Positions 368 to 32,708 of a DNA stretch of 64,000 bases are shown piece after piece. Position 1 is the stretch's first letter. Each line of letters starts with the position of its first letter. Under the pieces are notes generated by a model. That model made no database searches. It had not been told where the DNA came from and worked only from the letters and a program-made list of their open reading frames with translations. The stretch is from a virus. The translations under genes and the position numbers were made by a program. The stretch is taken from IMG/VR virus record IMGVR_UViG_3300027997_000002; one strand, written 5' to 3'.

Positions 368-854
368 CATTCTAATCATCATCATCTCGGGAGCATCCAT
401 TGCGCCAGCTCTCGTTTTATCAATCATCGCGCTCGTCAAGACTGCTGATGAGGACACTCGTAACACTCGGAAGGAGAACGGGAATGCCACTCGCCTGCGG
501 CGCTACGTTTTCTGCTTGCTCTCTGCTGTGTCGGCTGGGGTCCTGGGGTTAATCCTAACGATTCTCGCAGTCCAGCCTGAGCTTGAGACGACATCCGGCT
601 GGCTCATCGTCGGGTTCTCCACGATGGTTTACGGCATCCTGGCCTACACGGCGCATCTACTAGTCGAGATTCCTCCACTCCGTGACCGCATCCGCGAGGC
701 CGTGCTCGCAGAGCGCGAAGCCTGTGCCAAGCTAGTTGACCGCTGCAAGCGAGAGGCGATCATTCCCGGACAACGCAACGACCAGGTCTACCGCGAGCAG
801 GCCTACCGCACGATCAGCGAAGAGCTCGCGGGCAAGATCCGAGCGAGGGAGTGA
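354..854 (+). CDS. Multi-pass membrane protein with C-terminal soluble segment
   Basis: Three hydrophobic helices; RBS GAAGGAGG. Confidence 0.65.
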   Translation: MSPSDILIIIISGASIAPALVLSIIALVKTADEDTRNTRKENGNATRLRRYVFCLLSAVSAGVLGLILTILAVQPELETTSGWLIVGFSTMVYGILAYTAHLLVEIPPLRDRIREAVLAEREACAKLVDRCKREAIIPGQRNDQVYREQAYRTISEELAGKIRARE

Positions 855-5790: not shown

Positions 5791-6954
5791 ATGATGGTGG
5801 CCCTCATCCCACAGGCGCTCCTGACCGCGACCTTCGACGTCGAGGGCCACGACCGCAAGCAGGACTGGGGGACGCCCGACTGGTGTCTCAACGCCTGTCA
5901 CCGCGTGCTCGGCAAACCCTTCGGGATCGACCCGTTCGCCAGCCCCGAGCGCCTCATCAACGCGCGGGTCCACCTGTCACTTCCCACCGACTCCATCATC
6001 GTCCCGTGGAACGCTCCCTATCCAGACGTCGCGCCGCCGGAGACCTTCTTCGCCAACCCGAGCTTCGACATCCTCGACCGCGCGATCCCGAAGTGCTCCC
6101 AGGCCCACTACGAGGAGGGCCTCGACGGCATCGGTCTATGGCCCTGGCGCCATCACCGAAACTTCTGGGAGCCGGTGTGGTCCGCACACGCGCTCGCATT
6201 CTTGCCGGCCATCGAGTTCGTCGGGGCCGAGCACTCGGCACCGTTTGCCTGTGTCGCGGTCCTTTGGGGGCCCGAGCGAGTCCAGACCTTTATGGAGGTC
6301 TTCCGCAACTACTGTCACGTCGCGCGCATCTCGGACGGGCTCCTGGAGTTTTGGGAGCCCCACCGCCAGCTCGCGCTGCCGCTACCAAAGGAGAAACCCA
6401 TGGCCAAGAAAAAGAAGAACAACATCCAGCAGCGCCTGTTCGACGCGCAACGCGGCGTCCTCCTCGACATCTTCCGCGAGAACTCGTCGCTACCCTTCAA
6501 GGCGATCCTCGAAGAGATCGAGACGTGCTCGACGTCGGACCTGGGCGACGAGGTCGAGAAGATCCTGGCGACGATCCCGCTGCGCGAGCTGGTGATGCCG
6601 GAGGGGGCGATGGTCATCGCTGCCAGTCCCGTGGCCCAGGTCGTGGAGGGCGTCACGGCCGGTGTCCTTCAGGGGGCATACAATGCCGAGCCCAAGCCGC
6701 CGAAGAACGGCGCGCCCGCTCGCAAGAAGAAGCCGACAAACCGGGGCCGGCCGCCGGTGGGTGCGGTCGCGGAGTTCGACGACCTGGTCCTCAAAGTCGT
6801 CGGCCGTCACAAGAAAGGCCTCGGCCTCGACGAGCTCGTCGACAAGACCGAGGGGTCGGTCAAGCGAGTGCGTAGCTCGCTCGAGCGCCTGGTCAAGGGC
6901 GGCAAGGTCGAGAAGCAGGGTAAGACGAAGGGAGTCCGCTATGTCGTGGCTTAG
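5791..6954 (+). CDS. Phage Dam-like N6-adenine methyltransferase fused in frame to a basic winged-helix domain
   Basis: DWGTPDW, IDPFAS and FFANPSF (NPPF/Y variant) in aa 1-200; Lys-rich linker and wHTH C-terminus. Confidence 0.7.
   Translation: MMVALIPQALLTATFDVEGHDRKQDWGTPDWCLNACHRVLGKPFGIDPFASPERLINARVHLSLPTDSIIVPWNAPYPDVAPPETFFANPSFDILDRAIPKCSQAHYEEGLDGIGLWPWRHHRNFWEPVWSAHALAFLPAIEFVGAEHSAPFACVAVLWGPERVQTFMEVFRNYCHVARISDGLLEFWEPHRQLALPLPKEKPMAKKKKNNIQQRLFDAQRGVLLDIFRENSSLPFKAILEEIETCSTSDLGDEVEKILATIPLRELVMPEGAMVIAASPVAQVVEGVTAGVLQGAYNAEPKPPKNGAPARKKKPTNRGRPPVGAVAEFDDLVLKVVGRHKKGLGLDELVDKTEGSVKRVRSSLERLVKGGKVEKQGKTKGVRYVVA
6400..6954 (+). CDS. Possible nested in-frame product (MAKKKKNN..., nucleoid-like wHTH)
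   Basis: AAGGAG at 6388-6393 six nt before in-frame ATG 6400. Confidence 0.5.
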   Translation: MAKKKKNNIQQRLFDAQRGVLLDIFRENSSLPFKAILEEIETCSTSDLGDEVEKILATIPLRELVMPEGAMVIAASPVAQVVEGVTAGVLQGAYNAEPKPPKNGAPARKKKPTNRGRPPVGAVAEFDDLVLKVVGRHKKGLGLDELVDKTEGSVKRVRSSLERLVKGGKVEKQGKTKGVRYVVA

Positions 6955-22518: not shown

Positions 22519-22922
22519 CGACGCACCCTCCGGAACCGGATCGGGGCGTGGAGCGTGTGCTCGATCTCTCCGCGCTCGACGAGATCCCACATGGCCTTGG
22601 TCATGTTTGGACCCGCGACGTCGGCCGTGTAGTCGTACAGCGTGACCGAGATATGGTTGAAGGTCTGGGCGCGGCCGTCGGCAAGGTACGCGAGGATCTC
22701 CACCTCAAAGCCGGCCGTCGGTCGTGCGTGCTGCTTCTTCCACTTGGCGATGACGTAGTCCCCTCGACCTGGGCGAGCCGAGCGCTCGGGGTCCCCCATC
22801 GAGCGGATCATGTGCGTGTAGCCCTCGCGTTGATCCCTCGGGACCGGGTAGCCACTAGCCCAGCCGTCGACGTGCTGGGAGTCGAGCGCTGCGATCTCCG
22901 AGCGTGTGTGGTCTGCTCTCAT
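22515..22922 (-). CDS. Hypothetical protein with C-terminal wHTH-like segment
   Basis: EILAYLADGRAQTF...KAMWDLVERGEIE. Confidence 0.55.
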   Translation of the reverse strand: MRADHTRSEIAALDSQHVDGWASGYPVPRDQREGYTHMIRSMGDPERSARPGRGDYVIAKWKKQHARPTAGFEVEILAYLADGRAQTFNHISVTLYDYTADVAGPNMTKAMWDLVERGEIEHTLHAPIRFRRVRR

Positions 22923-23848
22923 TGCTTGCCTTCCATGATGCTGTTGACGTGATCGCGATAGGTCTCGGCGACGCCCTGGTCGTTTTGAGCGTGGTTGCCC
23001 GCCCGGCCACCGGTGGCGCCCTTGGCCTCCTCAGGCGCCCGCCTGGCGGCGTAGCTCCACGCAAGCGAGTCGGAGCTTGCGATGTACGGAGCGGCGTAGC
23101 GCAGCGCCTGTGCGCCCAGGCCGAACGCGTGGAGCCCGAGCCCGCCCTGGACTCCCGCCAACTCGCGAAGGATCTCGACGGGCTCCCGGACGCTCTTGCG
23201 CCGGCAGATGGAGCCGACGCCCACGCGCTGCATGTCGCCAAGGATGACGCCGGCGTCGCGGTACATCTCGACGTGGTGCATGTAGTCGCCAAGCTCCCAG
23301 CCTTGCAGCACGGGCAACCAGTGGACCTCGGGCGCCATCGCGAAGAGCGTCCGGAAGTTGTCGACCGTGCGGCGCTGGTGCTCGGCGATGGTCAGGCCGG
23401 TAGCACGCAGCGCCGTCTCCTCGCACATCCAGTCCTGGATCGACACCCAGCCGATCGTCCCCAGCTCGCGCTGGTACCTCAGGACCTCGTCGACGAACGC
23501 CTCGGGGCTCACGGTCCAGCGTCCGTGCTGGTGCAGCTCGGTGAATCCTCCGCTGTCGACGTAGACGGGGACCGTGGCCTTGGGGTAGGCGGTGATCCGC
23601 CGGCGGATCTGGCGGATGCTCAAAAACAGGGGGCCCTGGGCGTCCCCGGCGAACGCCCAGTGCGGCCGATGGGTCCCGAGGATGAATCCCTCGTCGGACT
23701 CGTCGAGCCACGGGCACGGTCCCCCCTGGTGCTTGCCCCAGCGGTCGTACCAGAGATCGGGGACCTCGGCGCAGTCGGCCGGGTCGTGGACGAGCCCGTG
23801 CTCGTCCTCGAACGCCTCGATCGCTTCGCGTGTATCGTCGCTATGCAT
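22919..23848 (-). CDS. DpdA-like (TGT-fold) 7-deazaguanine DNA transglycosylase
   Basis: LGTHRPHW, DSGGF, QDWMCE, PVLQGW, VGVGSICRR, LHAFG, SSDSLAWS. Confidence 0.75.
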   Translation of the reverse strand: MHSDDTREAIEAFEDEHGLVHDPADCAEVPDLWYDRWGKHQGGPCPWLDESDEGFILGTHRPHWAFAGDAQGPLFLSIRQIRRRITAYPKATVPVYVDSGGFTELHQHGRWTVSPEAFVDEVLRYQRELGTIGWVSIQDWMCEETALRATGLTIAEHQRRTVDNFRTLFAMAPEVHWLPVLQGWELGDYMHHVEMYRDAGVILGDMQRVGVGSICRRKSVREPVEILRELAGVQGGLGLHAFGLGAQALRYAAPYIASSDSLAWSYAARRAPEEAKGATGGRAGNHAQNDQGVAETYRDHVNSIMEGKQ

Positions 23849-24146
23849 GCGTCTGCCTGCGCCGCAGCGTTCCGTGTTTGCGTGCGGCTTCCCACAGTGT
23901 ATGGCGCGAGACCCCGAGCGCGCGAGCTAGCTCCCCGATCGGCATGTCGGAGACACGGACCGCCTCGGCGAGTCGCTTCAGGTTGAACCCGCGGCCCGGT
24001 CGCGGGCCCTTGGGTCGCATCACGCCGGCGCGTGAGACCGCACGCCCCGCGATCGTGGCTGAGCGCCCGCATAGCTCGGCCGCTTGCTGGAGAGTCTTGC
24101 CGCCGGTGTAGAGCCGGACGATCTCCGCGTGGACTTCCGCGCTCAC
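23841..24146 (-). CDS. Tandem HTH DNA-binding protein
   Basis: LYTGGKTLQQAAELCGRS and IGELARALGVSRHTLW; GTGA overlap with sigma gene. Confidence 0.7.
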   Translation of the reverse strand: MSAEVHAEIVRLYTGGKTLQQAAELCGRSATIAGRAVSRAGVMRPKGPRPGRGFNLKRLAEAVRVSDMPIGELARALGVSRHTLWEAARKHGTLRRRQTHA

Positions 24147-24664
24147 GCGTCCGCTCCCACGGTCTCGCGCAGGCCGGCCACGACATCCGTGCGCCAGCGT
24201 GACGCCGTCGCGATGCTCACGCCCCGGCGCTCTGCCAGCTTGGAGATCCCCCCGTACTCGTACGACGTGACCAGGTCGCGCCAGGCCTTCCCGGTTGCCA
24301 AGCTGGCGACGCCGAGATCGTGCGCCAGCTCGAACACTTCGTCGGCGCGCCTGGGGTCGACGATCCGCTCGGTGTCGCGCTCGTCCTTGATCAACCGCTC
24401 GGAGTTGCGCCCGGCTCGCGTGCCCGTGATGCCGCGCCGGTGGTCTCGCATGGCGCCGTCGATCCGCCGGGCCGCGAATGCCCACAGCGTGACGCCCCGG
24501 TTCGGCTCGAACCGTGTGCGCGCCTCGGCGAGCGCGAGGAGCCCGACGGCTGCCAGCTCGCGGGAGTCGGCGCCGATGTCGGTCCAGCGCTGGGCATGGT
24601 GGTACGCGAGCCGCTCGACGCGGCGCACGTGCCATGGGTGAACAGTCCTGCTCATGGTCGTCAT
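24143..24664 (-). CDS. Minimal sigma-70-family (FliA-like) sigma factor
   Basis: Region 2 ELAAVGLLALAEARTRFEPNRGVTLWAFAARRIDGAMRDHRR; region 4 ISKLAERRGVSIATASRW. Confidence 0.8.
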   Translation of the reverse strand: MTTMSRTVHPWHVRRVERLAYHHAQRWTDIGADSRELAAVGLLALAEARTRFEPNRGVTLWAFAARRIDGAMRDHRRGITGTRAGRNSERLIKDERDTERIVDPRRADEVFELAHDLGVASLATGKAWRDLVTSYEYGGISKLAERRGVSIATASRWRTDVVAGLRETVGADA

Positions 24665-24667
24665 GGG

Positions 24668-24721
24668 TTCCATCCTTCTTGCAGCGTCATGCCGCACGCT
24701 GAGGGCTCGCACGGTGCGTCC
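24668..24721 (-). promoter_or_regulatory. Conserved leader module, copy 1 (sigma gene)
   Basis: GGACGCACCG...GGCATGACGCTGCAAGAAGGATGGAA before ATG. Confidence 0.75.
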
Positions 24722-24735
24722 CCCAGCGGGCGCCG

Positions 24736-25092
24736 TCACGCTCCCGCGTCCCCCTCCGCCATCGCCACGACGCCGCACGGGGCGTCGTCCCCCACGATCT
24801 CGAAGGGCTCGACTAGGTCGGCCATCATGGACAGCGCCAGCGCTACCTCGCGCATGTAGTCGTCGTCTGGCATGCGTGCGGCGCCCGTCAGCCAGACGCC
24901 CAGGTCGTACGACGCGAACCGGATCGCCTCGTCGTCGTCGACCAGCACGCCGCAGTTGTCGCAACGTTGGATCTCCAGGCCGCGCTCGCCGGAGTCGCAC
25001 GGCATGTAGCCCAGGCGGTGACACTCGTCGCACGCATCCTCGCGCCGTTGCATGGGGATGCCGACGGCGGTCGGTTGCTTCGCCTTGGCCAT
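24736..25092 (-). CDS. Zn-finger protein
   Basis: CDEC...CDNC. Confidence 0.55.
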   Translation of the reverse strand: MAKAKQPTAVGIPMQRREDACDECHRLGYMPCDSGERGLEIQRCDNCGVLVDDDEAIRFASYDLGVWLTGAARMPDDDYMREVALALSMMADLVEPFEIVGDDAPCGVVAMAEGDAGA

Positions 25093-26018
25093 CACATCGC
25101 CTCCCGTACCTGCGTGGCGATCCACTCGCCCACGGCCGGCGGCACCGCATTGCCGAGCCCGCACACGACGTCGCCCCGCGTGGCGTCGTCTGGCCAGCCG
25201 TAGCTATCCGGGAAGCCCATCGCCCTGGCGTTCTCGCGGAGCGTCAGGGGCCGGTACATGCGACCACGCACGACGGCCCATTGATCCTTGGTGGTGATGG
25301 TCCGGATCGGTTCGTCGAGCCCGACGCCTGGGTGGTTGCTGACGTGCTGCGTGATGAAGCGGTCGCCATGGCGCTTGCGTCCGTTGGCGATCCGTCGACG
25401 CACGGCAGCCGACGCTCCGGTGATGGGGCGCCAGTTGCCAGCGCGCCAATCGATGCACGGCCCGAAGGCGGGCTCACGGCCGCGTGGAGCCTCGACCCGC
25501 AAGGCGCCCCGGTCACGCAGCCCGACAATGAACAGCCGCCTGCGGCGCTGTGGCACGCCCAGGCGGGACGCTGTGACCACATGCTCGGAAAGCGAGTAGC
25601 CCAGATACTGCAGGCAATCGCGCCACTGTGGATAGAGACGCCAGCGTCGGAAGGCTGGCACGTTCTCCACGACGATCGCCCTGGGCTCGGTCACGTCCAC
25701 GCAGTCGACGATCGCCCAGGCGGTTGCACGCAGCGCGTCGTGCTTGCGTCGCGTCCGTCCGCTCGCGGCCCGGCTCGGCTGTGCCGCGCTGCTGTGGCCC
25801 TGGCACGCTGGCGCGGCCAGTAGCAGATCGTACTCGGGCAGCGTCGCCCAGTCGCACTGCCGCAGATCCTGGCACGCATGCGTGGTCCGGGGATGGTTCT
25901 GAGCGTGAGCCTCGACCGCGAACGGCCAGTGGTTGGCGGCCCACGCAACCCGGCAGCCCGCACGCTCGGCGCCGAGCGTGAAGCCACCGAGCCCCGCGAA
26001 CAAGTCGACGGCGATCAC
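25092..26018 (-). CDS. dcm: DNA (cytosine-5)-methyltransferase
   Basis: DLFAGLGG (I), APACQGHS (IV, PC variant), ENV (VI), QRRRRLF (VIII), LGNAVPP (X). Confidence 0.92.
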   Translation of the reverse strand: MIAVDLFAGLGGFTLGAERAGCRVAWAANHWPFAVEAHAQNHPRTTHACQDLRQCDWATLPEYDLLLAAPACQGHSSAAQPSRAASGRTRRKHDALRATAWAIVDCVDVTEPRAIVVENVPAFRRWRLYPQWRDCLQYLGYSLSEHVVTASRLGVPQRRRRLFIVGLRDRGALRVEAPRGREPAFGPCIDWRAGNWRPITGASAAVRRRIANGRKRHGDRFITQHVSNHPGVGLDEPIRTITTKDQWAVVRGRMYRPLTLRENARAMGFPDSYGWPDDATRGDVVCGLGNAVPPAVGEWIATQVREAM

Positions 26019-26446
26019 GACAGGGCCTCGGGATCGATCTCGGTGTGATGTTCGTCCGTGAGCGTCGAGCGTCCGTCTAGCTCGCATAGGGCGTCCGATA
26101 CCTCGTGAGCCCAGCACGTGATGCTGTGGATCTGGCGCTTGCGTGCTGTGCTGAACACAAGGCCCAGCGTGGTGGCAAGGTGGATCAGAGCGTCGCGGTC
26201 CGCTTGCTCCGACTGTGCGAGCCGGCCCAGCGGTACGGCGATTGTGTCGACGGGCTCGGCGGGACCGTGCAAGCCGTCAGGGTCGCACGCAAGGCAACGG
26301 CAAACGCCGCTGTACAGGCTGCGGCGTGCAGCGTTCAGCGTGCATTCACCACAGCGGCAGATGTGGCCGTACGTGTGCCAGCGTTCGGCGCTCCAATCCT
26401 TCGCGGCGATCGGCGGCGTTGTGTTGCCAAATGGGTCGTGTGCCAT
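26015..26446 (-). CDS. Cys-rich hypothetical protein
   Basis: CRCGEC...CRCLAC. Confidence 0.55.
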   Translation of the reverse strand: MAHDPFGNTTPPIAAKDWSAERWHTYGHICRCGECTLNAARRSLYSGVCRCLACDPDGLHGPAEPVDTIAVPLGRLAQSEQADRDALIHLATTLGLVFSTARKRQIHSITCWAHEVSDALCELDGRSTLTDEHHTEIDPEALS

Positions 26447-26455
26447 GCCTCCGTG

Positions 26456-26507
26456 TCCATCCTTCTGCAGCGTCATGCTGCCACCTGCCGGCTCGCGCGG
26501 TGCGTCC
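26456..26507 (-). promoter_or_regulatory. Conserved leader module, copy 2
   Basis: GGACGCACCG...GCAGCATGACGCTGCAGAAGGATGGA. Confidence 0.75.
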
Positions 26508-26527: not shown

Positions 26528-26770
26528 CTAGCTGGCCTTGCGTCGACGACGTTGCGGCGGGTCAGCGACGGCCACGGGGGCAGGAGGGTTCAGGCCTTCG
26601 GCGCGTGTGGCCAGCGTGAGCGTGAGCGTGGAGGGAGGCTCGGGGCTCTCGAACGCGGTCCGTTTCACGTACAGCGTCCCCACCAGCCAGTCGGCGCGAT
26701 CGCCTTGCTCCTTGTAGCGGTGCGTCCCCTTGGTGCTTTTCTCGTAGTCGAATGTGATCGTGGCGTTCAT
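26528..26770 (-). CDS. Small beta-hairpin (AbrB-like?) protein, first gene of leftward early operon
   Basis: ITFDYEKSTKGTHRYKE...VGTLYVKR; preceded by GAAGGATGGA at 26777-26786. Confidence 0.6.
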   Translation of the reverse strand: MNATITFDYEKSTKGTHRYKEQGDRADWLVGTLYVKRTAFESPEPPSTLTLTLATRAEGLNPPAPVAVADPPQRRRRKAS

Positions 26771-26822
26771 GGCCTGTCCATCCTTCGGGGCGGTTCTGCC
26801 GCCCGTCCAGACGCTACCACGA

Positions 26823-27103
26823 TCTCGCCCCCAGGGGGGCCCTTTCTCGCCCTGGCCAGCGTGGGGGCGAGAATCCTCACGCCAGGGCGAGAATCCCGCA
26901 GCGTGGCCTGAGAGCCAACACGCGCCCCGCTGAGCGGTTTTTCTCGCCCTGGTATAACGGTGCGTCCAGGGCGAGAAAACCCCACCTGAGGGATCCGGCC
27001 CCCCAGCGTGGGCTATCTCGCCCTGTACGGCCAGCGCGATCGCGTTCTCGCCCCGGGGGCCCCATAGCGTCCAGAATCTCGCCCTTTTGTTTTCTCGCCC
27101 TGG
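26823..27103. repeat. Array of 10 TCTCGCCC octamers in a divergent intergenic region, including a perfect 14-bp inverted repeat
   Basis: Forward at 26823, 26845, 26942, 27016, 27046, 27077, 27093; reverse at 26865, 26885, 26969; IR 26939-52/26966-79 around TATAAC. Confidence 0.9.
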
Positions 27104-27158
27104 GGCTGGTAGCTTGAGCGTGGGGCCGGTTTCGCCGGCTCCAGAAGGATGGACCCTC

Positions 27159-27884
27159 ATGCCAGGATACGTGCTCTACCGCGGACCGTCGTTGCTGGAC
27201 GGTTCGCCGATCGTGGCCATCGCCACGACGGACAGTCGCAACCGGAAGACCGGCGACATGATTCAAGTGTGGATCCTGCCGGCCGACATGTCCCCCGTCG
27301 AAGCCGTACACGCCGGGCTCGACGACAGCGTCTGCGGCGATTGCTCGCTTCGCGGCACCACGCAGGACGGCAGCAACGTCGGCCGCACCTGCTACGTGCG
27401 AGTCTTCCATGGACCGCTCAGCGTCTACAAGGCATGGCGGCGCGGCCGGTACCCCGAGCCCGCGCTGCACTGGCTGGCTGACCTTGCGTCCGGTCGACAC
27501 GTGAGGCTCGGCGCCTACGGCGATCCGGCCGCGGTACCCCGCGCCGTGTGGGAGCGTCTGCTCACCTACGCGGCGGGCTGGACCGGCTACACGCACCAAT
27601 GGCGGACCGGGCTCGCGATGGCCGATCTGTGCATGGCCAGCGTGGAGACGGACAGCGACGCCGCCGAGGCTCGCGCCCTGGGCTACCGGGTGTTTCACGT
27701 CACGCAAGGCGCCGAGCCTCGGCGCGAGGGGTACATGGTCTGCCCGGCCAGCGACGAGGCGGGCCACCGCCTGCAGTGCGACGAGTGTGGAGCGTGCGCC
27801 GGCACCAGCGCCGCCGCTCGGTCCAACGTCCAGATCGCGGCCCATGGCAGCGGCAGGGTCCACCTGCAGGTGGTGGCGGCGTGA
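27159..27884 (+). CDS. Conserved Cys-rich phage protein (GP88-like), first gene of rightward early operon
   Basis: NRKTGDMIQ, CGDCSLR...CY, RLGAYGDPAA, GYTHQW, CPAS...CDECGAC; preceded by GAAGGATGGA at 27144-27153. Confidence 0.7.
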   Translation: MPGYVLYRGPSLLDGSPIVAIATTDSRNRKTGDMIQVWILPADMSPVEAVHAGLDDSVCGDCSLRGTTQDGSNVGRTCYVRVFHGPLSVYKAWRRGRYPEPALHWLADLASGRHVRLGAYGDPAAVPRAVWERLLTYAAGWTGYTHQWRTGLAMADLCMASVETDSDAAEARALGYRVFHVTQGAEPRREGYMVCPASDEAGHRLQCDECGACAGTSAAARSNVQIAAHGSGRVHLQVVAA

Positions 27885-28111: not shown

Positions 28112-28314
28112 ACGGCGCACGCTACCTCACCCCAGAAGAGCAGGCGTTCGCGGTCTGGTTGCTCGACCGCGCGCCGCTCGTGCTCCACGTGATGGCCAGG
28201 GCGCTCGCCCATTGGCCTGTACCCAATGACAAGGCAAAGCAGCAAGAACGCCGCGATCTCAACTATGCTCAAGCGTGGCTCCGTGACCACGCAGCGAAGG
28301 ATGACGAAGGATGA
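28108..28314 (+). CDS. Hypothetical protein
   Basis: ATGA overlaps. Confidence 0.55.
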   Translation: MNGARYLTPEEQAFAVWLLDRAPLVLHVMARALAHWPVPNDKAKQQERRDLNYAQAWLRDHAAKDDEG

Positions 28315-28943
28315 CGACAGCGACCCACCTATGCCGCGAGTGCGGCGTCATGCGTCCCCACCACCAATGCGAGACCGGCGAGGCCGGTTGCCTGCACTGC
28401 GACGAGTGCAGCAACATGCTCTACCCTGACGGCCCCCCGGCCGACGTGGGCTGCCCCAACTGCGGCGGTGACGTCGACGCTAACGGGCGCTGCCAACAGT
28501 CCTGCGAACCGTTCCGCGCCGAGGCTGACTTTTGGTGCCGCGGGTGCCAGGAGGTGACCGACCACACGCACGCCGACTACACCGGGACCGGCGAGCCCCG
28601 GTTCCAATGCGAGCAGTGCGGACGCTGGCTGGAACCCTGCGACGACTGCGGCAGCGAACCATGCCCGCGCCACGACGAGGCGCCGCGCATCCGGGCCGCG
28701 TTCGCGGCGGCCGGCTTCCACGTCGAGGACACCGGCGGCGGAGCGCAGGCGTTCGCTCGCACCGACGGCGACAAGCAGACGCTGGTCACGCTCCACGACG
28801 ACGCCCGGCTACCAACGCGGTTCGACGAAGCGGTGTTCGCTGGCATCTACGTCGCCGACCCGGAGGAGCCCTGGTGCTTCGACGAGCAGGTCGACTGCGA
28901 CGGCTACGAGAGCGTCACTAGCTACCTGGCGCGCTGGCTGTGA
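28311..28943 (+). CDS. Multi-Zn-ribbon protein
   Basis: Seven CxxC-type pairs in the N-terminal half. Confidence 0.6.
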   Translation: MTTATHLCRECGVMRPHHQCETGEAGCLHCDECSNMLYPDGPPADVGCPNCGGDVDANGRCQQSCEPFRAEADFWCRGCQEVTDHTHADYTGTGEPRFQCEQCGRWLEPCDDCGSEPCPRHDEAPRIRAAFAAAGFHVEDTGGGAQAFARTDGDKQTLVTLHDDARLPTRFDEAVFAGIYVADPEEPWCFDEQVDCDGYESVTSYLARWL

Positions 28944-28986: not shown

Positions 28987-29014
28987 GGCAGCATGACGCT
29001 GCAAGAAGGATGGA
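28987..29014 (+). promoter_or_regulatory. Conserved leader module, copy 3
   Basis: GGCAGCATGACGCTGCAAGAAGGATGGA six nt before ATG 29021. Confidence 0.75.
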
Positions 29015-29020
29015 CAGGCA

Positions 29021-29371
29021 ATGACCGGACACAGATGGCACCACGGGCCCGAGCTTCGCAGGACCCACCACTCCCTCGGCATGGACGACAAGAAGGGCCG
29101 CGCGATCGGTGCGATCGTCGTCGTGCGCATTGTAACGGTCGTCGAGAGCGGGGGCTACCGCAACCGCGAGGCGGACGCTCTGCCCATTGGCACGGAGTCG
29201 GTCAGCGTCTGCATCACGGCCGCGCGCCGCGGCCTGCCGTTCGGAGCCTCTCAGAACTCGAAGCGCATTGGCCCCCCGGGTGCCGCGACGGACGCCAAGG
29301 TCAAGGCGGAGATCGAGCGCCGCATCGCGTCCATGACCACGCGCTACCGCAAGCAGTTCGGAGGTGCGTGA
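29021..29371 (+). CDS. Hypothetical beta-sheet protein
   Basis: Follows leader module. Confidence 0.6.
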   Translation: MTGHRWHHGPELRRTHHSLGMDDKKGRAIGAIVVVRIVTVVESGGYRNREADALPIGTESVSVCITAARRGLPFGASQNSKRIGPPGAATDAKVKAEIERRIASMTTRYRKQFGGA

Positions 29372-29607: not shown

Positions 29608-29967
29608 ATGAAAGCCAACCTCAACCGCATGATCTTCGAGTTGGAGGGCGCTCTCACACTGGCGCGCCAGCTCCCGACCGACCTCGACCACAAGGAGCTG
29701 ACCGACGCTCGCATGGCCGTGATCGGCCAGCGTCTCAACCGGGCCACCAAGGGCTACAACGCGCTCGGCGAGGAGCTGGACGACCGCGTCAATGCCCTCG
29801 ACCCACCAGTGGCACCGGTGGACGCGGACGCCTGGCGCGAGGGCGACGTCAACTGCCCGGGCTGCGATTCGAACGAACCGCTGGTGACCGAGACGCTCTA
29901 CGGTGGCCGCATGACGCAGCTGCGTTGCAGCAACTGCGGCCATGCGGGGGAAGAGGGCTCATGCTGA
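29608..29967 (+). CDS. Coiled coil + Zn ribbon protein
   Basis: CPGC...CSNC. Confidence 0.55.
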   Translation: MKANLNRMIFELEGALTLARQLPTDLDHKELTDARMAVIGQRLNRATKGYNALGEELDDRVNALDPPVAPVDADAWREGDVNCPGCDSNEPLVTETLYGGRMTQLRCSNCGHAGEEGSC

Positions 29968-30740
29968 CCCCAGTCTGCCAACGATGGCGCGCGGGCCGAG
30001 ACAGCTACCGGCCGGCGCGCGAGACCATCCGCACCGCGGACTACGAGGTCGCACGCATCGACACCGACCGCGTGGCCAAGTCGTTCGTGCTCGCGCATCA
30101 CTATAGTGGGACGTACCCGGCGTCGCGCTTCCGCTTCGGGCTCTACCAGCGCGAGCTGGTCGGCGTCGCCGTCTTCGCCGTGCCTGCGCAGCCCCGATGC
30201 CTCGACGTGCTCCCGGGCGACCGCATGACGGGCGTCGTGCTCGGGCGCTTCGTCCTCGTCGACCAGGTCCCCGCCAACGGCGAGTCCTGGTTCATCGCGC
30301 GCTGCTTCGAGCTGCTTCGCGACGCTGGCATCACCGGCGTTGTCTCGTTCTCCGATCCAGCCAGGCGCACGTCCGCATCGGGCGACGTCGTGTTCGGTGG
30401 TCACGTAGGGACCATCTACCAGGCCACCAACGCGCGGTACCTCGGGACCTCCAAGGCCGAGCGTCGCTGGCTGCTACCGGACGGACGCGTGCTCGACCCA
30501 CGTGCGCTGTCGAAGATCCGCCGGCGCGACCAGGGCTGGCGGTACGCTGCGGCCCAGCTCGAAGCGTTCGGCGCGAGGCCCTTACGCAAGCAGGAGCCGC
30601 GAGCGTGGCTCGACCGCTGGCTCGAGCGCTTGTGCCGACCGCTGCGTCACCCGGGCAATCACAAGTACGCGTGGGCCCTGCAGCGTCGCGACCGACGGCA
30701 TCTGCCGGCGAGCCTCCCGTACCCGAAGGTGGTGGGCTGA
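29961..30740 (+). CDS. mom: Mom-family adenine modification (GNAT-like) enzyme
   Basis: HHYSG, LGRFVLVDQVPANGESWF, VVSFSDP, GHVGTIYQATNARYLG. Confidence 0.85.
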   Translation: MLTPVCQRWRAGRDSYRPARETIRTADYEVARIDTDRVAKSFVLAHHYSGTYPASRFRFGLYQRELVGVAVFAVPAQPRCLDVLPGDRMTGVVLGRFVLVDQVPANGESWFIARCFELLRDAGITGVVSFSDPARRTSASGDVVFGGHVGTIYQATNARYLGTSKAERRWLLPDGRVLDPRALSKIRRRDQGWRYAAAQLEAFGARPLRKQEPRAWLDRWLERLCRPLRHPGNHKYAWALQRRDRRHLPASLPYPKVVG

Positions 30741-31622: not shown

Positions 31623-31951
31623 GCTTCAAGCAACCCATGCTCCGCGACGAGACCCAACGCTACGTCGCCGCGACCATCGAGGCCCTCGGCGTCGACGAGC
31701 GCACGGTGCTCAAAGAGTGGCTCCGGGGTGAGAGCCTCGCGTCGTGCCCACGCTGGCTCGAGTCCTACCTGGGCGAGTTGGCGTGGGACAACCAGATGCT
31801 GCGCAACGGTCTGCGGGCCGGGATCATCGTCGTGCGTCAGATGTTGAATCAAATCCCGGCTGGGCCTCAACTGGGCGACGACCTCATCGGCCAGGCCAAG
31901 CTTTGGGTCAACTACGCAGCCGGCCTCGGCGAAAGGAAGCGACCGAAATGA
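31619..31951 (+). CDS. Hypothetical protein
   Basis: ATGA overlaps. Confidence 0.55.
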   Translation: MSFKQPMLRDETQRYVAATIEALGVDERTVLKEWLRGESLASCPRWLESYLGELAWDNQMLRNGLRAGIIVVRQMLNQIPAGPQLGDDLIGQAKLWVNYAAGLGERKRPK

Positions 31952-32160
31952 ACAAGATCATCAACACCACCAACTACCGTTCGCAGGAGCTTGCGATCGA
32001 ATGGCTGCGCAAGAACGGCGGCCGCGCCAAGATCTCTGGCGGCCAGGTCGCGCTCGCACGTGCGCTCGCTCGCAAGGGTCTCGCCCGGCTCGTGCGTGCG
32101 CGAGCGCCCGACAACGGCTATATCGTCGAGCTGACCGAGGAGGGGAGGCGCAGCGGCTAA
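31948..32160 (+). CDS. Small winged-helix-like protein
   Basis: ALARALARKGLARL...VELTEEGR. Confidence 0.6.
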   Translation: MNKIINTTNYRSQELAIEWLRKNGGRAKISGGQVALARALARKGLARLVRARAPDNGYIVELTEEGRRSG

Positions 32161-32168
32161 CTTCACAT

Positions 32169-32251
32169 GCCCACTTGGACTCTGCGATGCGGGCCCTTCC
32201 ATCCTTCGGGCCCGCGACAATGATGCGGCGGTTCGACTCCGTCGGTGGGCA
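32169..32251 (+). ncRNA. tRNA-like structured RNA lacking a D-stem, with an 11-nt antisense-type loop
   Basis: Acceptor GCCCACT/GGTGGGC+A, canonical T-arm GGCGG-TTCGACT-CCGTC, central 8-bp stem GCGGGCCC/GGGCCCGC with loop TTCCATCCTTC; intergenic. Confidence 0.8.
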
Positions 32252-32282
32252 CTGCCCGATGAGGGCTGAAGGAGAAACCGAA

Positions 32283-32708
32283 ATGACGAGCCCATTTGCA
32301 GTGTCCCGCGGGCTGACGCTTTGGCAGCCGATGGCGTGGGCGATCTCGGACCTCGACAAGCGCATCGAGAACCGGCCGTGGAAGCCGTGGTCCGTCGCCA
32401 AGCGGATCGCGATCCATGCCGGCAAGACGTACAACCAAGACCACGCGATACAGATCGCGCGCCACTTCAAGGTCGTGGTCCCATCGGTGAAGCGGATCCC
32501 GCTCGGTGCCATCGTGGCGGTCGCGGACATCGTCGGCTGCGTCACCGAAAGCGACGACCCGTGGTTCTCGGGCCCCTACGGCTGGCAGCTCGAAAACGTC
32601 GTCAAGCTGCCGGAGCCCATTGCGTGCGGCGGGGCGCAGGGCCTTTGGCGCCTTACGCCTGGCGTGCAACTTCAAGTCCAGGAACAGATGAGGCAGGCGC
32701 TGCTATGA
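32283..32708 (+). CDS. ASCH-domain (PUA-like) protein
   Basis: LTLWQPMAWAI...KRIENRPW...IAIHAG...GAIVAVAD...GAQGLW. Confidence 0.85.
   Translation: MTSPFAVSRGLTLWQPMAWAISDLDKRIENRPWKPWSVAKRIAIHAGKTYNQDHAIQIARHFKVVVPSVKRIPLGAIVAVADIVGCVTESDDPWFSGPYGWQLENVVKLPEPIACGGAQGLWRLTPGVQLQVQEQMRQALL

Follow-up and report, generated by a model that had tools for sequence, protein, structure and literature searches.

The stretch of DNA examined here (IMG/VR record IMGVR_UViG_3300027997_000002; 64,000 nucleotides (nt), referred to as the window) derives from an uncultured phage from seawater metagenomes. Within it, a 122-nt gap bounded by a gene for a protein of 70 amino acids (aa) (31948–32160) and a 141-aa phrog_3193 gene (32283–32708) holds an 83-nt gene for a transfer RNA (tRNA)-shaped RNA, located 5 kilobases (kb) into the rightward operon. 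Both bounding genes agree with independent gene calls on an identical contig. The loop of the element is the complement of a motif that lies at the ribosome-binding sites of five early genes. Its structure and strand, the specificity and conservation of that complementarity, and its membership of a family present in related phages are established here.

Read in order, the element consists of an acceptor stem, a stemless D region, a long hairpin at the place of the anticodon arm, an 11-nt variable region, a T arm and the discriminator A (Table 1). The acceptor stem has 7 base pairs (bp), one terminal U.G pair included; direct reading finds no D stem, U8-G9 being followed by 11 unpaired nt. T-arm residues G53, U54, U55, C56, R57, A58 and C61 are all canonical, and the T arm is identical to that of a metagenomic tRNA-Thr(UGU). 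The 3' trailer reads CUG, and CCA is therefore not encoded. An earlier note, made from the DNA letters of the window, had described this architecture and its coordinates, which direct reading of the sequence bore out in every detail.

Table 1. Coordinates of the element, its parts and the early-gene sites, with sites on two related contigs
Feature	Position	Strand	Details
tRNA-shaped RNA gene, 83 nt	32169–32251	+	Direct reading, fold, covariance-model relatives
Acceptor stem, 5' strand	32169–32175	+	GCCCACU; nucleotide -1 is U; partner 32244–32250
8-bp GC stem and 11-nt loop	32189–32215	+	Stem GCGGGCCC/GGGCCCGC (32189–32196/32208–32215); loop UUCCAUCCUUC (32197–32207)
T arm	32227–32243	+	GGCGG-UUCGACU-CCGUC; canonical T loop
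Acceptor stem, 3' strand, and discriminator	32244–32251	+	GGUGGGC and A32251; no encoded CCA
Trailer hairpin	32254–32266	+	GCCC-GAUGA-GGGC; between element and ribosome site of next gene; kept in L162 and L190
Target 1	24669–24678	-	GAAGGAUGGA(A); 4 nt to ATG of sigma-70 region-2 protein gene (24143–24664)
Target 2	26456–26465	-	Motif; 9 nt to ATG at 26446 (gene 26015–26446)
Target 3	26777–26786	-	Motif; 6 nt to ATG of first leftward gene (26528–26770); 13-nt match CCCGAAGGAUGGA
Target 4	27144–27153	+	Motif; 5 nt to ATG of first rightward gene (27159–27884, phrog_2554)
Target 5	29005–29014	+	Motif; 6 nt to ATG of gene 29021–29371
Possible weaker sixth target	28295–28313	+	Tandem CGAAGGAUGA-CGAAGGAUG, into ATG of gene 28311–28943; 9-nt match, -12.0 kcal/mol
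L164, first rightward gene			GAAGGAUGAAU
L164, first leftward gene			GAAGGAUGGAC
L164, further site	L164:4839		GAAGGAUGACG
L183, homologue of target 5			GGAAGGAUGAG
L183, further site	L183:3833		GAAGGAUGAAG

For assignment to known RNA families, Rfam and ARAGORN were used, as the earlier note had proposed. ARAGORN found no tRNA or transfer-messenger RNA (tmRNA) gene in the window, and Rfam gave no match in the window at gathering thresholds. In a permissive Rfam search (E ≤ 10, positions 32100–32320), the best score in the tRNA clan was 14.1 bits, for tRNA-Sec, against a gathering score of 47; the C4-type families (RF01695, c4-2 and c4-a1b1) were unlisted in that search and had no match at the gathering score in the window. 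The related elements L162, L190, L164 and L183, described below, gave no Rfam match at E ≤ 1. Of the features of a tRNA, the 7-bp acceptor, the canonical T arm and the discriminator are present, with compensatory changes in relatives, while the D stem is lacking (11 unpaired nt instead), as is a 5-bp anticodon stem with a 7-nt loop (8-bp stem and 11-nt loop instead).

Several other identities were rejected. A tmRNA is contradicted by the lack of an ARAGORN or Rfam match, by a third acceptor pair that is C3-G70 and not G3.U70, and by the lack of a tag reading frame. Membership of the alpha-r14/cuckoo family (RF02344) was dismissed, there being no Rfam match and the loop being UUCCAUCCUUC and not CCUCCUCCC. 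A tRNA fragment marking a phage attachment site (attP) would not have the 5' acceptor strand, which is present and co-varies. A terminator role of the hairpin was ruled out, a U tract being absent on both strands.

Predicted pairing of the loop with early ribosome-binding sites

Exact copies of the loop complement, GAAGGATGGA, number six in the window, against 0.12 expected, and none of 100 shuffles reaches six. Five copies lie 4–9 nt ahead of early-gene start codons, and the sixth is the loop complement itself (32198–32207, minus strand). The five placements given in the earlier note were all confirmed, as were its 11/11 match at the sigma factor gene and its 13-nt match at 26777. For target 2, the start at 26446 is the one conserved in the related contig L163.

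A loop-duplex scan was run over both strands of the window, 128 kb in all, and the five ribosome sites rank 1–5 after the self-complement. They pair with the loop at -16.3 to -17.0 kcal/mol (-17.0 kcal/mol at target 1), whereas the other 33 of 38 gene starts, taken from the independent gene calls on the identical contig, reach -12.0 kcal/mol at best. Against the generic tail of 16S ribosomal RNA the ranking is different: the five sites pair at about -8.8 kcal/mol, and most other genes, which have GGAGG-type sites, at -10 to -15 kcal/mol. The five target genes therefore form a distinct class of ribosome sites. In predicted folds, a GC hairpin stands 1–3 nt 5' of the motif at each target and the motif itself is unpaired or weakly paired. 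The tandem CGAAGGAUGA repeat at gene 28311–28943 may be a weaker sixth target; it belongs to a tandem 10-nt repeat, CGAAGGATGA-CGAAGGATG, at 28295–28313 (+), of which each unit is a 9-nt match to the loop-plus-stem complement. The AUG within the motif was rejected as a consistent start codon, its frame varying between sites.

We give about even chances to the reading that the element is a processed, trans-acting antisense RNA that blocks these early ribosome-binding sites. Two alternatives bear on the motif itself. In one, the 10-mer would be a signal at the level of DNA or protein, for instance a promoter element, an operator element or an RNA operator for a translational repressor protein, and the loop copy a sixth site or a coincidence. 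All six copies are indeed one motif on double-stranded DNA, three of them belong to a repeated leader module, which perhaps contains promoters, and a sigma factor is encoded nearby. We regard this explanation as very unlikely, because five copies are co-oriented with genes at Shine-Dalgarno distance and the sixth is inverted and placed exactly in the loop of a perfect 8-bp hairpin in a tRNA frame, as antisense logic predicts; moreover, in the related contig L183 the loop and its own targets changed together, and a protein operator needs no complementary copy.

In the other, the RNA would be a positive factor, a private anti-Shine-Dalgarno on a tRNA frame that aids ribosomes or stabilises messenger RNAs (mRNAs) at sites that pair poorly with 16S RNA. 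The weak 16S pairing of the five sites (-8.8 kcal/mol) would suit such a factor, as would the look of motif and loop, which resemble the canonical pair after insertion of one matching nt in either partner. However, we know of no precedent, pairing of a Shine-Dalgarno sequence normally excludes the 30S subunit, and AAGGA alone is a serviceable ribosome site; a positive role is thus very improbable, a shade more so than a DNA or protein signal.

The leader module is found at 24662–24692 (-), 26444–26476 (-) and 28993–29023 (+), with an ATG in the loop of the GCAGC-AUGAC-GCUGC hairpin of each copy. At the sigma gene this ATG opens a mini open reading frame of 9 codons, MTLQEGWNP, with a stop codon that shares bases with the sigma ATG (ATGA); the module ATG at 26476 is in the reading frame of its gene, and that at 28993 is not.

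Relatives of the element and their targets

Five related elements were recovered from other metagenomes (L162, L190, L202, L183 and L164). L162, a 728-nt contig of another assembly, came to light because it encodes a homologue, 84% identical, of the 70-aa protein upstream; its element scores 83 bits with a single-sequence covariance model, and its downstream gene differs from that of the window. L190, L183 and L202 were found with a T-arm/acceptor pattern in a metagenome collection. The L190 element is 83 nt long with an identical loop and a C32213U change that turns a stem G-C pair into G.U, a variant also present in sediment run X4. The 80-aa first leftward protein led to two further contigs: L163, which is 94% identical over the control region, and L164, a 69% relative on a 7-kb contig. 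The L164 element (20.5 bits with the single-sequence model; identical in L202) is 117 nt long and lies within a gap of 121 nt in the same operon, and L183 has a version of 136 nt.

The elements fall into an A lineage (window, L190 and L162), with acceptor GCCCACU/GGUGGGC, and a B lineage (L164/L202 and L183), with acceptor GCCCGGC/GCCGGGC. Three acceptor pairs differ between the lineages and all are still paired: two changes are double and compensatory (A-U to G-C and C-G to G-C), and the third is U.G to C-G. The second T-stem pair is likewise G.U or G-C among relatives (L162/L183). The acceptor covariation was read by eye from the sequences, since the A and B lineages could not be aligned end to end with MAFFT. 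Such changes show a structured RNA on the plus strand whose structure is under selection; the strand follows from the G.U pairs, which would be A.C mismatches on the opposite strand, and from the strand-specific T loop, and an RNA from the opposite strand was ruled out on these grounds.

The B-lineage frame (GCCCGGC ... GGCGGUUCGAAUCCGUC GCCGGGC A) agrees fully with a metagenomic tRNA-Thr(UGU) at the acceptor, the T arm and the discriminator, and the A-lineage frame is close to tRNA-Thr(AGU). Judged by the identity of the B frame, the element is a converted tRNA-Thr-like gene. That identity to a real tRNA could also be expected of a decaying, functionless tRNA pseudogene or of an attP-type fragment, as phage attachment sites often copy the 3' ends of tRNAs. 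We hold this to be extremely unlikely: the element has a 5' acceptor strand, which co-varies with its 3' partner from lineage to lineage, it occurs in at least five contigs from different samples (L202 being the same as L164) with a perfect long hairpin in each, and no integrase was found among the proteins scanned in the partly annotated window.

Further searches were made for members outside this set. At 80 IMG/VR loci with a phrog_2554 neighbour and 3 with a phrog_3193 neighbour the element was not found. A loop-plus-T-loop pattern gave 38 matches in IMG/VR, all of them chance or real tRNA-Gly(UCC) except the locus L018 treated below, and the same kind of pattern gave 31 matches in 185,579 species genomes, all chance, several of which resemble tmRNA 3' ends by eye.

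In the B lineage, the AUG of the next gene lies 2 nt past the discriminator (GGGCA-CU-AUG; L164:2360–2363, L183:7351–7356), and the ribosome site of that gene is otherwise buried within the acceptor/T arm. Processing of the tRNA type at the 3' end would there leave a near-leaderless mRNA. This arrangement favours an explanation in which the element is a processing or stability signal only, a tRNA-shaped punctuation mark at which RNase P and RNase Z would cut the long early transcript and so part the upstream from the downstream cistrons, its loop having no function in trans. Its mid-operon position with no promoter of its own agrees with such a role, as does its retention in L162 despite a different downstream gene. 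An acceptor and T arm would suffice for punctuation, however, and neither the 8-bp hairpin with an exact complement of the five best sites nor the rebuilt B-lineage domain, which keeps anti-ribosome-site loops matching its own sites, would be explained; we consider a pure processing signal quite unlikely.

In L163, GAAGGATGGA is intact at two sites and the third reads GGAGGATGGA, which pairs through G.U. Changes in that contig are concentrated between motif and ATG, at 3 of 6, about 5 of 9 and about 3 of 5 spacer positions, and in one upstream hairpin, and L190, from the same assembly series, keeps the loop unchanged. The central domain of the B lineage has been rebuilt as a long stem with two hairpins in elements of 117–136 nt, and pyrimidine loops are still displayed: UUUGUUCAUCCUCC in L164, and CGUUUCCAUCCAUG and UCUUUCAUCCUUCC in L183. 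The L183 homologue of the target-5 gene carries GGAAGGAUGA, which matches the loop of L183 itself.

A cross-matrix of loops and sites was then calculated. The A loop pairs at -16 to -17 kcal/mol with A sites and at about -12 kcal/mol with GAUGA sites; the second L183 loop, UCUUUCAUCCUUCC, pairs with its own sites at -17.0 (GGAAGGAUGAG) and -20.0 kcal/mol (GAAGGAUGAAG) and with A sites at -14 to -15 kcal/mol. This shows a cognate loop–site preference between the A lineage and that of L183 (B2). In sequence, loop and targets have moved together from GGAUGGA/UCCAUCC to GGAUGAA/UUCAUCC, a G-C pair being replaced in compensatory fashion by A-U. Co-variation of loop and ribosome motifs in related genomes had been suggested in the earlier note as a check; the complementarity is conserved and co-variation is found in part, in L183, while L164 pairs weakly. 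Besides its element, L164 holds at 494–504 (+) an exact 11-nt same-sense copy of its loop, GUUCAUCCUCC, inside the coding region, and on the mRNA strand, of a 482-aa gene that follows the element; by expectation the contig would have about 0.003 matches of this kind.

The same loop in an unrelated phage, and the setting of the window

The exception in the IMG/VR pattern search, L018 (IMGVR_UViG_3300045125_000029; 43.6 kb), has a 256-nt terminal direct repeat at its contig ends and for this reason probably represents a complete genome. It shares no protein with the window. Its tRNA-like gene (L018:291–370; G001:C1:6394–6473) has all four arms and scores 39.5 bits with the Rfam tRNA model, ARAGORN giving no call, and its frame resembles tRNA-Lys. 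The anticodon arm has a stem of 8 bp and a loop, UCCAUCCUUCC (UCCAUCCUUC), whose sequence is that of the loop in the window. Searches by T arm and acceptor found no relatives of L018. That the same 11-mer loop stands at the same structural place by chance is very unlikely, and the loop was therefore acquired twice or is old. No L018 gene start carries the motif, the single extra exact copy being inside a 680-aa open reading frame. This points to a loop partner other than a set of ribosome sites in its own genome, and to a target outside the phage, and argues against a purely private target set. The earlier note's reading of a tRNA-mimic repressor is supported in part: the element is a structured plus-strand RNA, is not an ordinary tRNA, and has specific, conserved complementarity to the early sites.

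A general or host-directed anti-ribosome-site loop, for which the five phage sites would be secondary, is favoured by L018, with its same loop UCCAUCCUUC, its lack of ribosome-site targets of its own and its separate tRNA-Lys-like origin. Such a loop could mimic the 16S anti-Shine-Dalgarno tail or be antisense to AGGAUG(G/A)-type CsrA/RsmA-like sites, and its main partners would be host mRNAs or host sponge RNAs (GAAGGAUGGAA-type sequences). The loops of all members read like UCA(U)CCU(C/U)C, that is, the 16S tail, which we take to be UCACCUCC, with one extra U. The target motif AAGGAUG(G/A)A presumably resembles the CsrA/RsmA consensus (ARGGAUG, the core selected by CsrA in vitro (SELEX)) and the repeats of CsrB-type sponge RNAs. 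Against this, the five phage sites carry the full 10–13 nt complement, conserved while their flanks mutate, which incidental sites would hardly be; a Pfam scan of 20 early-region proteins also gave no CsrA-like protein. On balance we consider a host-directed loop unlikely.

Regarding the source phage, its genes include those for a terminase-like protein, a RepB-type primase, a UvrD helicase, a DNA methylase, a Mom-like protein and a TGT/DpdA-like protein. The last is a queuine tRNA-ribosyltransferase homologue (phrog_1279, E 6.5e-61); this homologue, two DNA methyltransferase-like proteins and the Mom-like protein are encoded at 22919–23848 (-), 25092–26018 (-), 29961–30740 (+) and 5791–6954 (+), and suggest that the phage DNA is heavily modified. 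No DNA match to the phage was found in INPHARED, either for 10 kb in a near search or for 231 nt in a distant search. Relatives of its helicase reach only about 30%. The phage has nearly no relatives among 5.8 billion proteins, and those of the primase come down to one distant contig (L161), which is without the element. The divergent control region at 26790–27140 contains a TCTCGCCC(TGG) repeat array that is near-perfectly kept in L163 (640–980) and would fit operators or iterons recognised by a DNA-binding regulator.

A separate and apparently common class of mini tRNA-like elements was seen on GC-rich metagenome contigs (L176, L178, L182, L184, L189, L193, L196, L197, L201, L203, L204, L211, L217, L222, L224 and L232). 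In each, a 5' strand resembling an acceptor and a short variable hairpin are accompanied by a T arm and acceptor reading GGCGGTTCGAyTCCGCCGGTGGGCA; directly 3' stands a UCCCC...GGGGAG hairpin in which the Shine-Dalgarno sequence of the following gene is sequestered. Processing signals of tRNA shape, or fragments of attachment sites, are possible identities of this class.

Proposed mechanism, known systems and meaning

In the antisense reading, a gene derived from a tRNA-Thr-like gene would encode a small, stable, tRNA-shaped RNA that is transcribed within the rightward early/middle operon. A promoter scan found no sigma-70-type promoter upstream of the element, which lies well inside that operon, and release by processing would therefore be needed. 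Known determinants for cleavage by bacterial RNase P are all in the element: U-1 and G+1, acceptor and T stems stacked coaxially over 12 bp, a T loop and A73. Host tRNA-processing enzymes would excise the RNA, with RNase P cutting at U-1/G+1, RNase Z or exonucleases acting at or near the discriminator, and CCA being added after 3' trimming. The acceptor/T-arm frame would make the RNA stable and long-lived, and the long GC hairpin would expose the 11-nt pyrimidine loop. The partner of the loop in trans would be GAAGGAUGGA(A), which forms the Shine-Dalgarno region in five early cistrons that are promoter-proximal: the two genes that open the divergent operons, the gene for the sigma factor and two more. 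At 10–13 bp (about -16 to -17 kcal/mol), this duplex would far exceed in strength what the 16S tail achieves at these sites, and accumulation of the RNA would progressively occlude them, giving a delayed shut-off of early translation by negative feedback. We infer expression, processing, action in trans and the repressive sign of the effect.

Besides the L018 loop and its apparent outside target, several observations weigh against this mechanism. Targets 24669, 26456 and 29005 are copies of one longer leader module (the GCAGC-AUGAC-GCUGC hairpin with the motif directly after it), and the evidence therefore amounts to about three independent target occurrences plus the loop, not five. The GAAGGA part of the motif is a plain Shine-Dalgarno sequence, and only UGGA(A) is private. 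On its own 7-kb contig, the L164 (B1) loop UUUGUUCAUCCUCC reaches only -10 to -15 kcal/mol, and the L164 homologue of target 2 is without the motif. L163 and L190 are separate short contigs whose origin from a single phage is assumed. Folding z-scores of the element are modest (-1.5 to -3), it does not encode CCA, and the locus was found in DNA metagenomes only and in no RNA run.

A wider form of the idea would have tRNA-Thr scaffold RNAs with a private anti-Shine-Dalgarno, together with a private Shine-Dalgarno variant (AGG-A-UGR, in which one base is inserted into the canonical extended site), serve as an orthogonal recognition system addressing the early regulon and possibly host AGGAUG-type (CsrA-like) sites, the latter in view of the convergence of an unrelated phage on this loop. 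We consider this quite improbable.

The closest known RNA is C4 of phages P1 and P7, which is about 80 nt long and cloverleaf-like, is released from an operon transcript by RNase P and acts in trans at or near ribosome-binding sites (PMC12197685). As in the C4/CI group (RF01695; P4 CI RNA and N15 CA RNA), the element is phage-encoded, about 80 nt long and cloverleaf-like with an acceptor-like closing stem, and its loop is complementary to ribosome-site regions in the same genome. Unlike that group, it has a genuine tRNA T arm and a tRNA-Thr acceptor and matches no Rfam model even at E ≤ 10; it has one loop and not two, and five, possibly six, targets in two divergent operons and not in a single operon. 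Nor did it show an immunity or antirepressor context or any sign of lysogeny. To our knowledge, phage antisense RNAs matured by tRNA enzymes are limited to a few temperate coliphage systems, with one operon each.

Other systems share parts of this logic. The alpha-r14/cuckoo small RNAs of Alphaproteobacteria (NfeR1, CcsR1-4; RF02344) carry the pyrimidine anti-Shine-Dalgarno CCUCCUCCC in hairpin loops and are one-to-many translational repressors. The element follows the same one-to-many anti-Shine-Dalgarno logic, but the cuckoo RNAs are chromosomal, have their own promoter and terminator and no tRNA frame, and use a generic and not a private motif. Given such multi-target bacterial RNAs, the earlier note overstated the case in calling a one-to-many system new; what is genuinely new is the tRNA-Thr frame in a phage, the private extension of the motif, and an early regulon that includes a sigma factor. 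The tRNA-like domain of tmRNA likewise combines an acceptor and T arm with a stemless GG-containing D region and a long helix for the anticodon arm; unlike it, the element has no G3.U70, tag reading frame or pseudoknots. Compared with tRNA-Thr, it lacks the D stem, the 7-nt anticodon loop, the anticodon and the encoded CCA. In phage T4, the early protein RegA sits on the ribosome-binding sites of a group of early mRNAs and thereby shuts off their translation; the effector proposed here differs in being an RNA, with base pairing as its means of site recognition.

If the antisense reading is true, this would be the first true tRNA frame, with tRNA-Thr acceptor and T arm, converted to carry an anti-ribosome-site loop, and likewise the first with control over several early genes, among them the gene for the sigma factor of the phage itself. 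It would mark a simple evolutionary route from a tRNA gene to a regulatory RNA and provide an RNA counterpart to protein translational repressors such as RegA, in a compact, portable design of a stable tRNA body with a programmable loop. The small family supplies natural variants for reporter tests, and the identical loop in the unrelated L018 hints at a wider meaning of the target sequence. Should the orthogonal-recognition reading be true, these elements would represent an RNA-based global control of translation initiation carried on a tRNA body.

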